The translations under genes and the position numbers were made by a program. Shown here piece by piece: positions 1 to 4,861 of a stretch of DNA of 4,861 nt (its first letter is position 1; every line of letters begins with the position of its first letter). The notes under the pieces were generated by a model that saw only the letters and a program-made list of their open reading frames with translations, was not told where the DNA came from and did not search any database. Origin of the DNA: a virus (taxonomy: Duplodnaviria > Heunggongvirae > Uroviricota > Caudoviricetes). The stretch lies in IMG/VR virus record IMGVR_UViG_2617270974_000006; one strand, given 5' to 3'.

Positions 1-1
1 C

Positions 2-442
2 AGGTCTGCGGCAAGTAAGGCTCGCTGTGAGCATTGTGCTGGTACTGGATTTCATAATGTATTGCGCGAAGTGGTGAAACACTCCAGAAGCGGGGAGTCT
101 GTTATCAAGGAAGAGTGGGTGAAGGAACTATGTCAGCATTGTCATGGTAAGGGAGAAGTCAGCACAGCGTGCAGAGGGTGTAAGGGTAAAGGTATTGTCC
201 TGGATGAAAAAAGAACCCGGCTTCATGGCACGCCTGTTTATAAGATTTGTGGGCGTTGCAATGGAAACCGGTTTAGCCGTTTACCAACCACACTGGCGCG
301 GCTTCATGTCCAGAAGCTGGTACCAGACCTGACGGATTATCAGTGGTACAAAGGATATGCAGATGTCATTGATAAACTGGTTACAAAGTGCTGGCAGGAG
401 GAAGCTTACGCTGAAGCACAATTGAGAAGGGTGACGAGATAA
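2..442 (+). CDS. Putative late-gene antiterminator Q-like protein, 5'-partial, with DnaJ-type zinc-finger repeats
   Basis: Frame 2 is open from the first base of the window with no stop, so the TTG at 62 in the ORF track is not the real start. The translation (CEHCAGTG, CQHCHGKG, CRGCKGKG, CGRCNGN) carries four CxxCxGxG-type repeats. It lies immediately upstream of a short non-coding region ending in an intrinsic terminator and then a lysis cassette, which is where Q sits in lambdoid phages. The Q assignment is positional plus motif-based, not a verified homology. Confidence 0.45.
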   Translation, partial: RSAASKARCEHCAGTGFHNVLREVVKHSRSGESVIKEEWVKELCQHCHGKGEVSTACRGCKGKGIVLDEKRTRLHGTPVYKICGRCNGNRFSRLPTTLARLHVQKLVPDLTDYQWYKGYADVIDKLVTKCWQEEAYAEAQLRRVTR

Positions 443-550
443 GCGATTTTCGCCGAAGATAACGACATAATACTTGTGTTTCTCAAAAAATATGGATAAG
501 ATTTTCTCAACGATGGGGCTTGTGTATCTATCGTTGAACAATTTTTACGA

Positions 551-573
551 CCTCGCTATTGCGAGGTTTTTTT
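551..573 (+). terminator. Rho-independent terminator, tR'-like, downstream of Q
   Basis: Seen directly: stem CCTCGC (551-556), loop TATT, stem GCGAGG (561-566), then a 7-T run (567-573) and a second T run at 578-584. Lying about 110 bp after the Q stop, it matches the position of lambda tR'. Confidence 0.6.
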
Positions 574-610
574 ATGGTTTTTTTCTATTCAATCTACATC
601 AAAATCAATG

Positions 611-619
611 TGTTATAAT
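611..619 (+). promoter_or_regulatory. Extended -10 promoter element (TGnTATAAT) for the cargo cassette
   Basis: Seen directly: TGTTATAAT at 611-619, a perfect extended -10, about 38 bp upstream of the ATG at 657. No good -35 hexamer at 16-18 bp spacing, which extended -10 promoters tolerate. Downstream of the terminator at 551-573. Confidence 0.45.
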
Positions 620-656
620 GTTTTCTGTAAAACAACATTAAAGACAGGAGAACATT

Positions 657-926
657 ATGAAACTGACCTCTATCCATCTTGAAATACTACGTCGAGTGAA
701 TGAATTGCAGCCAAAGGATTCTAGAATTCAGGCTGCATCATTACCTCATCTCTCAGCAAAAGAGGTTAATTTTGCTATTTCAGATCTTGCTGATATAGGT
801 TTTATCGATGTTATACGAAGCAAATCTGCCGAAGGTGGATTGATTGCTAATGAGATAACGTCAAAAGGTTTTGCTTTTTTGAGTGAGATTGGCGCTGAAA
901 AAAATTCATCGATGAGCACTCATTGA
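657..926 (+). CDS. Hypothetical small protein (89 aa), predicted winged helix-turn-helix-like
   Basis: ATG at 657 with AGGAG at 646-650 (6-nt spacer), stop TGA at 924-926. AT-rich codon usage unlike the flanking phage genes. The pattern helix (IHLEILRRVNEL), helix (AKEVNFAISDLADIGFI), hairpin (DVIRSKS...LIANEITSKG), helix is compatible with a winged HTH. Fold assignment is inference from the primary sequence. Confidence 0.7.
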   Translation: MKLTSIHLEILRRVNELQPKDSRIQAASLPHLSAKEVNFAISDLADIGFIDVIRSKSAEGGLIANEITSKGFAFLSEIGAEKNSSMSTH

Positions 927-940
927 TTTCTGCTTCAATC

Positions 941-958
941 GGCTGCCAATTGGCAGCC
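941..958. repeat. Perfect 18-bp palindrome GGCTGCCAATTGGCAGCC (7-bp arms, AATT centre)
   Basis: Seen directly. It lies 15 bp after the stop of the 89-aa gene and is not followed by a T tract. A 15/18-identical copy (GGCTGCCAAATGGTGGCC) recurs at 1964-1981. Confidence 0.6.
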
Positions 959-1123
959 TAAACTGTAAAGTGAATTTAAAATCGCCTACAATTGATGCTT
1001 AAATTTTGTTCTGTATCATCTGCAGGTTTAGGGATATCACAGTAGCTTTCTGACAAGAAGAGTTCTTTTCTTCTACCAATGAAGTGGTTATGTTAACCTG
1101 CGCCAAATCGAGACTGGTGCGGA

Positions 1124-1930
1124 GTGGAATCGAAAGTGTCATATTTTTACAGAAGCAAGAATATTTCAGGTGTTTCTATAAATGAAGATAGCTTGATTAG
1201 CTTAAGCACGGCAATTGTCGAACGCTGCGTTAAAATGAATGAGCAAGCTCAAAAGGAAAGTAGGGAAGTTTGTGCTCAATGTGTTTTTTTTATTTTGTTC
1301 GATGGTAAGGGGTATAAAGTTGATTCTATCGGTGAGCTTGTGAAATACTTTAGACAGGCCACTAGGATTGATCAAATAATTTTTACTATTGAAACTTATC
1401 AAAGTCGACAGTCTAACAGGATGAATGGATCTTGGATGGAGCTACGAATTGATGAGAGGAATTCAAATAGCAGCACAATGATTGTAGCATCGGAAGATAA
1501 TGAGTGGGTTGACTCGTTATGGATTACGATTCAGGATTTACTTAACAAGTGCAAAAATAAATTTAGATTTTTTAGAACAGCTTGGACTATGTTAAGTATC
1601 CAGATTTCAGGTGTGACAGTTGGCTTTTTGCTTAGCTTATGGACAGCCTCAAAACTGGCGCCAAAACTATCAATCGATGGTGCATTTGCTTTATCATTTA
1701 TTTGTATCTTTATTTTGTTTTCGAACTTATGGAGCTTTGCTATTCCATTAATAATTAAGCTTATCGACTTTTTGTTTCCTAGTGTTAAGTTTGTTATTAA
1801 TGGTAAAAATTACTTTCACTGGAGTGTCCAGGCTATAATTGGAGCGATTGCCAGTGCGGTTATATTGTATTTTATTAGCTCCATGTTGCTTTTTGCATTA
1901 GAAATGTTAAATAGCATCATTAAGAAATAG
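1124..1930 (+). CDS. Hypothetical membrane protein (268 aa as drawn): soluble N-terminal domain plus three C-terminal TM helices
   Basis: ORF 1124-1930, stop TAG 1928-1930, strongly AT-rich. Hydrophobic segments WTMLSIQISGVTVGFLLSLWTA, GAFALSFICIFILFSNLWSFAIPLII and AIIGAIASAVILYFISSMLLFALEML suggest three TM helices in the last ~110 residues. No catalytic motif recognised in the N-terminal ~150 aa. The start is uncertain: GTG 1124, GTG 1136 (GGAG at 1121-1124) or ATG about 1234. Confidence 0.7.
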   Translation: MESKVSYFYRSKNISGVSINEDSLISLSTAIVERCVKMNEQAQKESREVCAQCVFFILFDGKGYKVDSIGELVKYFRQATRIDQIIFTIETYQSRQSNRMNGSWMELRIDERNSNSSTMIVASEDNEWVDSLWITIQDLLNKCKNKFRFFRTAWTMLSIQISGVTVGFLLSLWTASKLAPKLSIDGAFALSFICIFILFSNLWSFAIPLIIKLIDFLFPSVKFVINGKNYFHWSVQAIIGAIASAVILYFISSMLLFALEMLNSIIKK

Positions 1931-1963
1931 TTAATGAATTAGTTATAATTACATCAATTCTAT

Positions 1964-1987
1964 GGCTGCCAAATGGTGGCCTTTTTT
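1964..1987 (+). terminator. Candidate intrinsic terminator closing the cargo cassette
   Basis: Seen directly: GGCTGCC (1964-1970), loop AAAT, GGTGGCC (1975-1981) gives a 7-bp stem with two G-U wobble pairs, followed by TTTTTT (1982-1987). It lies 34 bp after the stop of the membrane-protein gene. Confidence 0.5.
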
Positions 1988-1990
1988 ATT

Positions 1991-2014
1991 CCTCTCATTT
2001 CTATTTCTGAGAGG
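1991..2014. other. Inverted repeat CCTCTCA-N10-TGAGAGG upstream of the first holin-like gene
   Basis: Seen directly: 7-bp perfect arms at 1991-1997 and 2008-2014 with a 10-nt loop, no T tract after it. It lies between the candidate terminator and the RBS of the first lysis gene. Confidence 0.35.
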
Positions 2015-2038: not shown

Positions 2039-2425
2039 ATGTCCGATCCGATTTCCGGCACAGGATTAGCTGGTGGAGCCCTAACGGGCGCTAGTATTTA
2101 TGGACTGCTGACCGGAACTGATTACGGCGTTGTTTTTGGCGCATTTGCAGGGGCTGTATTCTATATAGCAACAGCAGCAGATCTGAGTGCATCGCGCCGA
2201 CTGGCATATTTTATCGTGTCATATATTGCTGGGATCCTTTGCTCTGGATTGGTTGGCTCCAAGCTGGCAAACTTGACCGGATACAGTGATAAACCTCTGG
2301 ATGCTATTGGTGCCGTAATCGTCTCTGCTTTAGCCGTTAAAATCCTGACGTTCCTGAATAATCAGGATATCGGCTCGCTGGGGGCGCTCATAACGCGCCG
2401 GGGAGGGTCAGGTGGAGCTAAATGA
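2039..2425 (+). CDS. Putative holin (128 aa, glycine-rich, 3-4 TM segments)
   Basis: ATG at 2039 preceded by GAGGTGG (2029-2035), taken in preference to the upstream in-frame track start at 1973. Stop TGA at 2423-2425. Small, multi-TM, with a charged C-terminal tail, and first gene of the lysis cluster directly upstream of the endolysin. Holin assignment is positional and compositional. Confidence 0.6.
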   Translation: MSDPISGTGLAGGALTGASIYGLLTGTDYGVVFGAFAGAVFYIATAADLSASRRLAYFIVSYIAGILCSGLVGSKLANLTGYSDKPLDAIGAVIVSALAVKILTFLNNQDIGSLGALITRRGGSGGAK

Positions 2426-2693
2426 CCCGACAGCAACTATTAATGCGCTGTTATGTGCTTGTGTTGTTATTACTCTGATGTTTTATCGTCGTGGTGATTC
2501 GCGGCATCGTCCGTGGGTTTCACGTTTAGCCTGGCTGATTACTGTTACATACAGTGCTGTTCCGTTGGCCTATCTCTGTGGGATTTATCCCCATTCCTCA
2601 TGGCCCATTATCGTGGCGAACACTATTTTTCTTTCCGTGCTGGTGGCTGTCAGAGGCAACGTTGCACGTCTGGTTGATCATCTGAGGCACTAA
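2412..2693 (+). CDS. Second small membrane protein of the lysis cassette (93 aa), holin or antiholin-like
   Basis: GTG at 2412 preceded by GGGAGG (2401-2406, 5-nt spacer), overlapping the end of the previous gene by 14 nt. Two to three hydrophobic segments. Its stop TAA overlaps the endolysin ATG as TAATG at 2691-2695. Function inferred from position only. Confidence 0.5.
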   Translation: MELNDPTATINALLCACVVITLMFYRRGDSRHRPWVSRLAWLITVTYSAVPLAYLCGIYPHSSWPIIVANTIFLSVLVAVRGNVARLVDHLRH

Positions 2694-3303
2694 TGAACCA
2701 ACAATTATTTCAAAAGGCGGCTGGTATTAGCGCCGGGCTGGCTGCGCGCTGGTTTCCGCACATTGATGCGGCGATGAAGGAATTCGGCATTACAGTACCA
2801 GCGGATCAGGCAATGTTTATCGCTCAGGTAGGCCATGAGTCGATGGGGTTTAGCGCCGTAGTTGAAAATTTTAACTACACACCATCTGCGCTTGTGGCGA
2901 CGTTCGGAAAGAGGATCACACAGCAGCAGGCTGATGCCCTTGGCAGAACATCCGGACATGCAGCTCGTCAGGATGCTATTGCCAATCTGGTGTATAGCAA
3001 CCGACTGGGTAACAAAGCACCAGGTGATGGCTGGAAATATCGTGGTAGAGGATTAATTCAAATCACTGGCCTCCATAATTATCGCATCTGTGGCGCGGCG
3101 CTGAAGTTAGATCTGGTGACTTCACCTGAACAACTGGAACAGGAGCTACAGGCCGCGCGCTCAGCTGCATGGTTCTACACCTCTAAAGGTTGCATGGTCT
3201 ACGGTGCCGATATTAATCGTGTTACGCGCATCATTAACGGCGGTCTGAACGGTATTGAGGATCGTAAGGTTCGATACAACAAGGCGCGGGCGGCGCTGCT
3301 GGT

Positions 3304-3307
<4 letters not shown>
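2693..3307 (+). CDS. Endolysin, glycoside hydrolase family 19 (chitinase-like lysozyme)
   Basis: 204 aa. The N-terminal region resembles phage GH19 endolysins as recalled from Salmonella and E. coli phages, with two Glu nine residues apart (E49 in GHES and E58 in VVENF by my count) as candidate catalytic acid and base. GAGG RBS at 2684-2687. Sits between the holin-like genes and the Rz-like gene. Confidence 0.85.

Positions 3308-4861
<1,554 letters not shown>

Follow-up and report, generated by a model that had tools for sequence, protein, structure and literature searches.

A foreign low-GC cassette between the Q module and the holin gene of an Escherichia coli lambdoid prophage carries two separable genes, one of them a candidate membrane-acting protective gene

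A DNA stretch of 4,861 nucleotides from the virus record IMGVR_UViG_2617270974_000006 (the whole stretch is called the window below) covers the late-regulation and lysis region of an Escherichia coli lambdoid prophage of the Qin/ydfT type. Between the module of the late antiterminator Q and the first holin gene, the window carries an AT-rich block, and this block is real foreign cargo. It encodes two genes in the same orientation, a small gene (gene A) and a larger gene for a membrane protein (gene B), each of which is found elsewhere without the other. The explanation that we favour, still tentatively, is a composite one: the cassette consists of two single-gene morons stacked in the slot between Q and the holin gene, and gene B may be a stand-alone membrane factor that protects the host. 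The features are listed in Table 1.

A variable slot between the Q module and the holin gene

The edges of the cassette were defined by comparison with prophages that share both flanks. They lie at ~572/577 on the left and ~2002/2006 on the right, close to the extent of 583-1990 that had been proposed from the letters of the DNA alone (hereafter, the sequence-only reading). In two E. coli prophages (L064 and L065), positions 1-571 of the window were matched with 91-92% identity, and the right flank was matched with 97% identity in L064 (2003-3619) and with 83% identity in L065 (2007-3307). The slot between these flanks was occupied by an unrelated open reading frame (ORF) of 85 amino acids (aa) in L064 (2093-2350) and by an unrelated 213-aa ORF in L065 (2415-3056). 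Both ORFs are annotated as 'hypothetical protein', with no Pfam match and no meaningful PADLOC match. The Q flank was present in 2520 of the 5426 complete E. coli genomes, and the similarity in Q-bearing prophages stopped at 571-576. The whole cassette was found in 41 of these 5426 genomes, every copy being at least 99% identical. Because the same flanks hold other cargo, and because only 41 genomes carry the cassette as against 2520 with the Q flank, we regard the cassette as genuine cargo in a variable slot.

The G+C content was 0.352 in 583-1990, 0.486 in Q and 0.48-0.52 in the lysis genes, in agreement with the earlier estimate of roughly one-third against about one-half. The G+C content at third codon positions was 0.26 for gene A, 0.35 for gene B and 0.43-0.50 for the lysis genes. 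Absence from collinear relatives, a deviating base composition and, for gene B, a terminator of its own are the features that mark a moron, and all three were found here. The sequence-only reading had described the block as a moron-like insert of foreign origin in a variable position between Q/tR' and the holin gene, a description that the flank-sharing prophages and the low G+C content support. It had also placed a tR'-like terminator at 551-573 and a hairpin with a T tract at 1964-1987. The former was recovered as a hairpin plus T tract at 549-573 (8-bp stem, 4-nucleotide loop; RNA fold of -13.7 kcal/mol, z=-4.8), and the latter was found by a terminator scan and folds stably. No tRNA or Rfam RNA was found within the cassette, the GenBank phage collection contained no DNA match to it, and literature searches with the locus accessions and DUF2513 returned nothing.

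The interval between Q and S is a cargo site in lambdoid prophages, which holds stx in Stx phages and nmpC in DLP12, and bor and lom are morons of phage lambda. Like these lambdoid morons, the present cassette has a foreign composition, a terminator and promoter-like motifs, lies between late-operon modules and is absent from collinear relatives. Unlike in those cases, two morons are stacked here, and the gene A and gene B proteins are unrelated to the products of stx, nmpC, bor and lom. The organisation is a known one, namely a moron arrangement at a known cargo site, and the two proteins fall outside any characterised family tested.

Gene B, its family and its possible role

Two ORFs of 89 aa and 268 aa had been claimed from the sequence. 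Both are present (657-926 and 1124/1136-1930), and the larger is better read as a 264-aa protein. The GTG at 1136 is favoured over that at 1124 by the Prokaryotic Genome Annotation Pipeline (PGAP) and by the family alignment, in which divergent homologues start with 'MAxYLRD...' aligned to 'MSYFYRS...'. The AlphaFold model of gene B, computed with an alignment of 26 sequences, had a predicted local distance difference test score (pLDDT) of 87.4 and a predicted template-modelling score (pTM) of 0.72. In it, residues 1-147 form an N-terminal alpha/beta domain, which is followed by three long helices (residues 149-177, 183-213 and 229-263), with a short beta hairpin in the second loop. The hydropathy peaks agree with this model, and the three C-terminal transmembrane helices already noted by the sequence-only reading are upheld by both. 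Five lysine or arginine residues stand just before the first transmembrane helix and no signal peptide was found; therefore, the N-terminal domain is predicted to be cytoplasmic. The gene B product is an integral inner-membrane protein with three predicted transmembrane helices, probably in an N-in topology.

Residues conserved in at least 75% of the family members include D56, G59, A75, W124, Q156, S196-N197-x-W199, P215 and F219. Among them, Q156 in the first transmembrane helix and S196-N197-x-W199 in the middle of the second are conserved polar positions within the membrane. Foldseek searches with the model gave a best E of 0.07 with a template-modelling score of at most 0.25 against PDB and a best E of 0.02 against BFVD. 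No convincing fold relative was thus found in PDB or BFVD, and a sequence search of PDB with gene B returned no match.

Gene B is accompanied by its own signals. The motif TGnTAAYCT occurs ~40 nucleotides before the gene B start in five other lambdoid loci (L003, L011, L007, L008 and L017), with differences among the loci at the n position and in the DNA around the motif. In the window it takes the form TGTTAACCT, a consensus match with a chance expectation of 0.29 per window. The terminator of gene B is kept in L003, L011, L035 and L007; the L007 copy has substitutions in its stem. The TGTTAACCT motif at 1091-1099, the hairpin at 941-958 and the separability of genes A and B had no place in the sequence-only reading.

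Some side observations were made around these signals. The promoter-like segment before gene A (603-619) resembles 1933-1949 (82% identity), and the hairpin at 941-959 resembles 1964-1982 (84% identity), both counterparts being located at the 3' end of gene B. These look-alike segments may be a trace of moron joining by recombination at terminator hairpins. A TATAAT at 1944-1949 is not kept in the other lineages, which have TATCAT there. In the Hafnia/Citrobacter loci L011/L012, gene B (at ~6000) has an in-frame stop near codon 36 and is annotated as a 231-aa protein from Met38. The protein cluster phrog_30208 was built on this 231-aa form, though the gene B family as a whole conserves the first 37 residues.

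Gene B belongs to phrog_30208, a cluster of unknown function. A word-indexed search gave nine matches to gene B, and the family became visible only with an exhaustive profile search, which gave 231 representatives at 50% clustering, 126 of them at E<=1e-30. Almost all members are ~255-275 aa long and match end to end. Searches of 105 family members against Pfam, NCBIfam and PADLOC gave nothing beyond isolated marginal matches, and PADLOC-DB v2.0.0 contained no match to the gene A or gene B product at E<=10. The earlier statement that neither protein belongs to a named family holds, as no above-cut-off match was found in Pfam, NCBIfam or PADLOC and the only assignments were to PHROGs of unknown function.

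The breadth of the family was assessed with a hand-made degenerate DNA pattern, composed of two conserved family motifs, which was run on a species-level genome collection. The pattern returned 25 loci, of which 23 were confirmed by the family hidden Markov model (E<=4e-58) and a 24th (L062) was a weak partial match. The confirmed loci belong to several classes of Proteobacteria, Nitrospirales, Balneolaceae, Melioribacteraceae and others. The same pattern gave 0 matches in 2.9 million viral contigs. The family therefore appears to be mostly non-viral and not intrinsically a phage function. A search of the GenBank phage collection gave no protein match to gene B, and the canonical member P0014 had no plasmid match. 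An all-against-all comparison of 120 neighbouring ORFs revealed no recurrent partner of gene B, suggesting that gene B is a solitary module, of which only the enterobacterial clade is phage-borne.

Several members of the family lie beside genes related to defence. Gene B neighbours include AbiEi/AbiEii with RelB/YafQ and RhuM (L022), DUF6088/AbiEii with an AAA ATPase (L066), a toxin-antitoxin module with a Panacea domain (L067), and a CAP12-type TIR-like protein with a TIR_2 protein in a TraM-bearing element (L020). Type IIG restriction-modification genes are present in L042 and L048/L049, and a DUF499 gene (possible defence) in L063. An aggregate PADLOC scan of the gene B neighbours gave matches to restriction-modification, mad2, HmaC and PDC-S19.

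The slot itself holds further cargo in related lambdoid phages. In L007, Q and the gene B homologue are separated by two antisense genes (436-1849, minus strand) that match the PADLOC candidate defence system PDC-M11, one as PDC-M11A (E=1e-131) and one as PDC-M11B (E=6e-49), and other unannotated antisense genes occupy the same place in L008 and L009. An N6/N4 DNA methyltransferase of ~350 aa (PF01555) lies directly upstream of gene B in L003 (4886-5941), L011 (4760-5806), L017 (936-1973) and L008 (2541-3614). It is sometimes preceded by a conserved, winged-helix-looking ORF of 66 aa, and gene B also occurs without the methyltransferase. Since PDC-M11 and orphan N6/N4 DNA methyltransferases share the slot with gene B homologues, the slot appears to collect defence-related cargo and, in these lambdoid phages, to be a hotspot for cargo of the defence type. 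Gene B is found both in the presence and in the absence of these genes and is therefore not regarded as a component of the PDC-M11 or methyltransferase systems.

From its neighbourhoods and its architecture, rather than from homology, gene B may be a single-protein membrane exclusion or abortive-infection factor, a reading that we put forward with some reserve. More tentative still is the proposal that gene B, captured by a phage, is the founding member of a new family of anti-phage factors that each consist of one protein. These would combine a sensor fold absent from the solved structures, a three-helix effector and a Q / S-N-x-W core, would occur as solitary genes in defence islands of many phyla, and would be carried by enterobacterial lambdoid prophages as a moron ahead of the lysis genes. 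As an exclusion or abortive-infection factor, gene B would sense an infection cue with its cytoplasmic domain of ~147 aa, and its transmembrane helices, probably oligomeric, would damage membrane integrity or stop infection at a step that takes place in the membrane. Because only a loop of ~5 residues and the C-terminal end are predicted to be periplasmic, abortive infection seems likelier than a block of DNA entry. Gene A would encode a separate small protein, possibly a DNA-binding one.

It is established for the late operon of lambdoid phages that Q-modified polymerase passes the tR' terminator. Since relatives of the prophage share sequence only to ~571-576, the late promoter PR' is expected within the Q-linked segment 443-548. 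By lambdoid logic, polymerase starting from PR' would stop at 549-573 unless modified by Q, and Q-modified polymerase would read through the hairpins of the cassette into the lysis genes during lytic growth. In the lysogen, the promoter-like motifs of the cassette itself may allow transcription of gene A and gene B.

Prophages are known to encode single inner-membrane exclusion proteins that protect the lysogen, such as HK97 gp15, P22 SieA and T4 Imm. Gene B is like them in being a single inner-membrane protein carried as a moron, and by analogy the same function is proposed for it. It differs from them in its large cytoplasmic domain, in a predicted periplasmic exposure that is close to nil, and in belonging to a mostly non-viral family; no sequence or fold similarity to HK97 gp15, P22 SieA or T4 Imm was detected. 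Lambda RexB and the transmembrane effectors of the cyclic oligonucleotide-based antiphage signalling system (CBASS) and the pyrimidine cyclase system for antiphage resistance (Pycsar) are presumed to act at the membrane, killing or arresting the cell. Gene B may be compared with these effectors in having a cytoplasmic domain with few transmembrane helices and in that some family members lie beside defence-type genes or in a mobile element. Unlike in CBASS and Pycsar, no conserved sensor or cyclase gene adjoins gene B. The PADLOC models of transmembrane effectors gave a single marginal match among 105 gene B members, and the N-terminal fold has no convincing relative. The HK97 gp15 moron is cited in PMC11364771 (its reference 15).

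Several observations weigh against a protective role. Many gene B members lie among housekeeping genes (nuo/cls, ribonucleotide reductase, RecG, ABC transporter). Defence, toxin-antitoxin or restriction-modification genes were present in only about one third of the interpretable contexts, a suggestive share that was counted in short windows with no background control. The enterobacterial clade is without D7 and R54, each of which is ~93% conserved elsewhere, and its activity could differ from that of the family; because both residues were lost together, they may form a contacting pair rather than a catalytic site. Both promoters of the cassette are consensus matches only, with a chance expectation of 0.17 per window for the gene A motif. 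Finally, in the lambdoid loci in which a holin gene was seen, gene B is always the last gene before it.

The housekeeping neighbourhoods fit an alternative in which gene B is a lysogenic-conversion or fitness factor (for example, a membrane protein for ions, lipids or envelope stress) or selfish cargo, with gene A as an unrelated small regulator. The conserved polar residues within the membrane could equally serve transport or ligand binding, the slot also takes non-defence cargo such as stx and nmpC, and no defence homology was found for gene B. However, a patchy and sparse spread across phyla without an operon partner is typical of horizontally moving accessory genes, and the several independent associations with Abi, toxin-antitoxin, TIR-like, restriction-modification and PDC-M11 genes exceed, in an unquantified comparison, what would be expected for a housekeeping-type membrane protein. 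We consider this alternative somewhat unlikely.

If gene B protects lysogens, its family would be a compact form of immunity in which one gene, with a new sensor fold, acts at the membrane, and the junction between Q and the holin gene of Qin-type prophages would be documented as a slot that gathers defence-type cargo. The native cassette is only 1.4 kb long and easy to test. Gene B is one of many such candidates, comes from an unannotated family, and is supported by circumstantial evidence.

Gene A and the independence of the two genes

Gene A belongs to phrog_32916 (unknown function) with E=3e-61. A word-indexed homology search gave four near-identical matches, and the only detectable distant homologues are 79-aa proteins, 37-39% identical, in the Klebsiella phages ST405-OXA48phi1.2 and vB_VIPKPNMC05. 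There the homologue sits alone between a Q-like gene and the holin gene, with a tR'-like terminator and TGGTAAAAT at the equivalent position upstream and its own terminator downstream.

The 'winged-helix-like' character given to gene A by the sequence-only reading was weakly supported. Gene A resembles DUF2513 (E=2.4e-4, 21.8 bits against a Pfam cut-off of 29.6) and HTH_45 (E=0.026, 15 bits against a cut-off of 25.5), and a small gene A profile gave marginal matches to MarR winged-helix proteins in PDB (E=0.3-0.7). The Klebsiella homologue also matches DUF2513 below threshold (E=5e-3) in the same region as gene A. The matches to DUF2513, HTH_45 and MarR-like proteins are weak and are all below the curated cut-offs. 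A single-sequence AlphaFold prediction gave an unreliable model (pLDDT 54), and the protein is not basic (isoelectric point of 6.3). A small winged-helix DNA-binding protein is a weakly suggested identity for gene A, which serves as a lead.

The extended -10 motif TGTTATAAT lies exactly at 611-619, as had been claimed, and is the sole match in the window. The ATG at 657 follows 38 nucleotides downstream of the motif and is preceded, at a distance of six bases, by GGAG (647-650). The motif TGNTATAAT occurs once in the window, and at least one occurrence was obtained in 32 of 200 shuffles. With a chance expectation of 0.17 per window, TGTTATAAT alone is weak evidence for a promoter. TGTTATAAT was also considered as the phage late promoter PR' and rejected, since prophages with the same Q share sequence only to ~571-576. 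A 10-bp inverted repeat, TTATAATGTT at 613-622 and AACATTATGA at 651-660 (complementary at 9 of 10 positions), brackets the -10 motif and the start codon of gene A. It could be an autoregulatory operator for gene A, or a chance occurrence in AT-rich DNA.

The sequence-only reading had joined the two genes into a functional pair, in which a DNA-binding regulator and a membrane effector share one promoter. The comparative data do not support this, as genes A and B co-occur only in the cassette of at least 99% identity. A search of all fetched loci with gene A by tblastn detected it only beside gene B copies of at least 99% identity. Co-occurrence in other genomes had been set beforehand as one test of the two-gene model, and gene A was found beside no diverged gene B. 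It was absent at six diverged gene B homologues, which lie on short contigs of lambdoid phages or phage-like elements, and at ~28 non-phage loci. The gene B homologues of 77% (P0002/P0003), 62% (P0005) and 51% (P0006) identity are carried by other lambdoid phages with other Q families (PF06323, PF06530) and different holins. Upstream of the diverged lambdoid gene B stands the ~350-aa N6/N4 methyltransferase, the 66-aa ORF or both, and never gene A.

An alternative is that genes A and B form a two-gene system resembling a toxin-antitoxin pair or regulated abortive infection, with a toxic membrane effector that is kept under control or neutralised by a small winged-helix protein acting as regulator or sensor. 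Gene A and gene B lie next to each other in the same orientation in all 41 cassette-bearing E. coli genomes and in 12 of 13 IMG/VR loci, the inverted repeat overlaps the promoter and the start codon of gene A, and a different winged-helix-looking ORF of 66 aa stands upstream of gene B, or of the methyltransferase together with gene B, in L007, L008, L010 and L017. However, all these co-occurrences belong to one cassette of at least 99% identity and therefore count as a single evolutionary event. Gene A is missing beside every gene B homologue of 77% identity or less, and the Klebsiella phages carry gene A homologues without gene B. A promoter-like motif precedes each of the two genes and a hairpin follows it, and a spacer of 209 nucleotides (927-1135), which contains the hairpin at 941-958, lies between the genes. 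The 66-aa ORF, tried as a remote homologue of gene A, is not detectably related to it (hhalign probability 0.2%). The spacer was also compared with the methyltransferase as a possible remnant of it and showed no similarity. A two-gene system is accordingly improbable, and we read the cassette as two independent single-gene morons, stacked, with gene A not being a dedicated partner of gene B.

Even if gene B is not protective, this result corrects the record, as an apparent regulator-effector operon turns out to be two unrelated stacked morons. It also calls for caution in scans that deduce systems from adjacency inside one clonal lineage.

Lysis genes and prophage setting

The place of gene B directly before the holin gene also raises the possibility that it is a lysis-timing or holin-modulating (antiholin-like) protein of the lysis cassette rather than cargo. 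Its position within the Q-dependent late transcription unit, its occurrence before different holin families (Phage_holin_8, Phage_holin_2_1) and its three transmembrane helices would suit such a role, but we judge it the least probable of the alternatives, since gene B is missing from nearly all prophages in which the holin and endolysin genes are the same, a conserved terminator stands between it and the holin gene, and a promoter-like motif of its own precedes it. In addition, gene B has a low G+C content unlike the lysis genes, matches no holin family of Pfam, and belongs to a mostly non-viral, solitary family in phyla without these holins.

Table 1 Features of the window. Positions are those of the whole stretch.
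Feature	Position	Strand	Remarks
Q late antiterminator gene, 3' part (ydfT/Qin type)	1..442	+	left flank, outside cargo
tR'-like intrinsic terminator of Q module	549..573	+	left edge of cargo
Low-GC variable cassette, read as two stacked morons	~577..2002	+	flanks shared with prophages carrying other cargo
Extended -10 promoter-like motif TGTTATAAT for gene A	611..619	+	consensus match
Gene A: 89 aa, possibly winged-helix (DUF2513-like), independent moron	657..926	+	ORF; phrog_32916
Perfect 7-bp-stem hairpin after gene A, no T tract	941..958	+	RNA fold -15.7 kcal/mol, z=-3.4
Extended -10 promoter-like motif TGTTAACCT for gene B	1091..1099	+	conserved across lambdoid lineages
Gene B: predicted inner-membrane protein, 264 aa	1136..1930	+	GTG start; alternative GTG 1124 = 268 aa
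Intrinsic terminator of gene B moron	1964..1987	+	7-bp stem + T tract
First holin gene (Phage_holin_8)	2039..2425	+	right flank, outside cargo; PF16931 E=3e-34, phrog_198
Second holin gene	2412-2693		
GH19 endolysin	2693-3307		
Rz-like spanin gene	3304-3633		3' end removed by ISEc31

The Q fragment at the left end of the window matches the Pfam family Antiterm (PF03589, E=7e-31) and phrog_127, and E. coli records label it as antitermination protein or ydfT. Intact relatives of the prophage carry e14/Qin-like early genes, an HK97-type head and a sheathed tail.

At the other end, the insertion sequence ISEc31 (IS3 family) begins at ~3606-3620, extends to the end of the window at 4861 and truncates the 3' part of the Rz-like gene. 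This prophage copy is probably impaired in lysis through the insertion. The exact junction between ISEc31 and the Rz-like gene was found in no complete E. coli genome of the collection, and the similarity of the intact prophage L064 to the window ends at 3619. The Rfam model of the Hfq-binding small RNA isrC matches strongly at 3686-3808 (150 bits, E=1e-37), a segment that belongs to the 5' part of ISEc31 orfA. The isrC 'sRNA' family here coincides with insertion sequence DNA.

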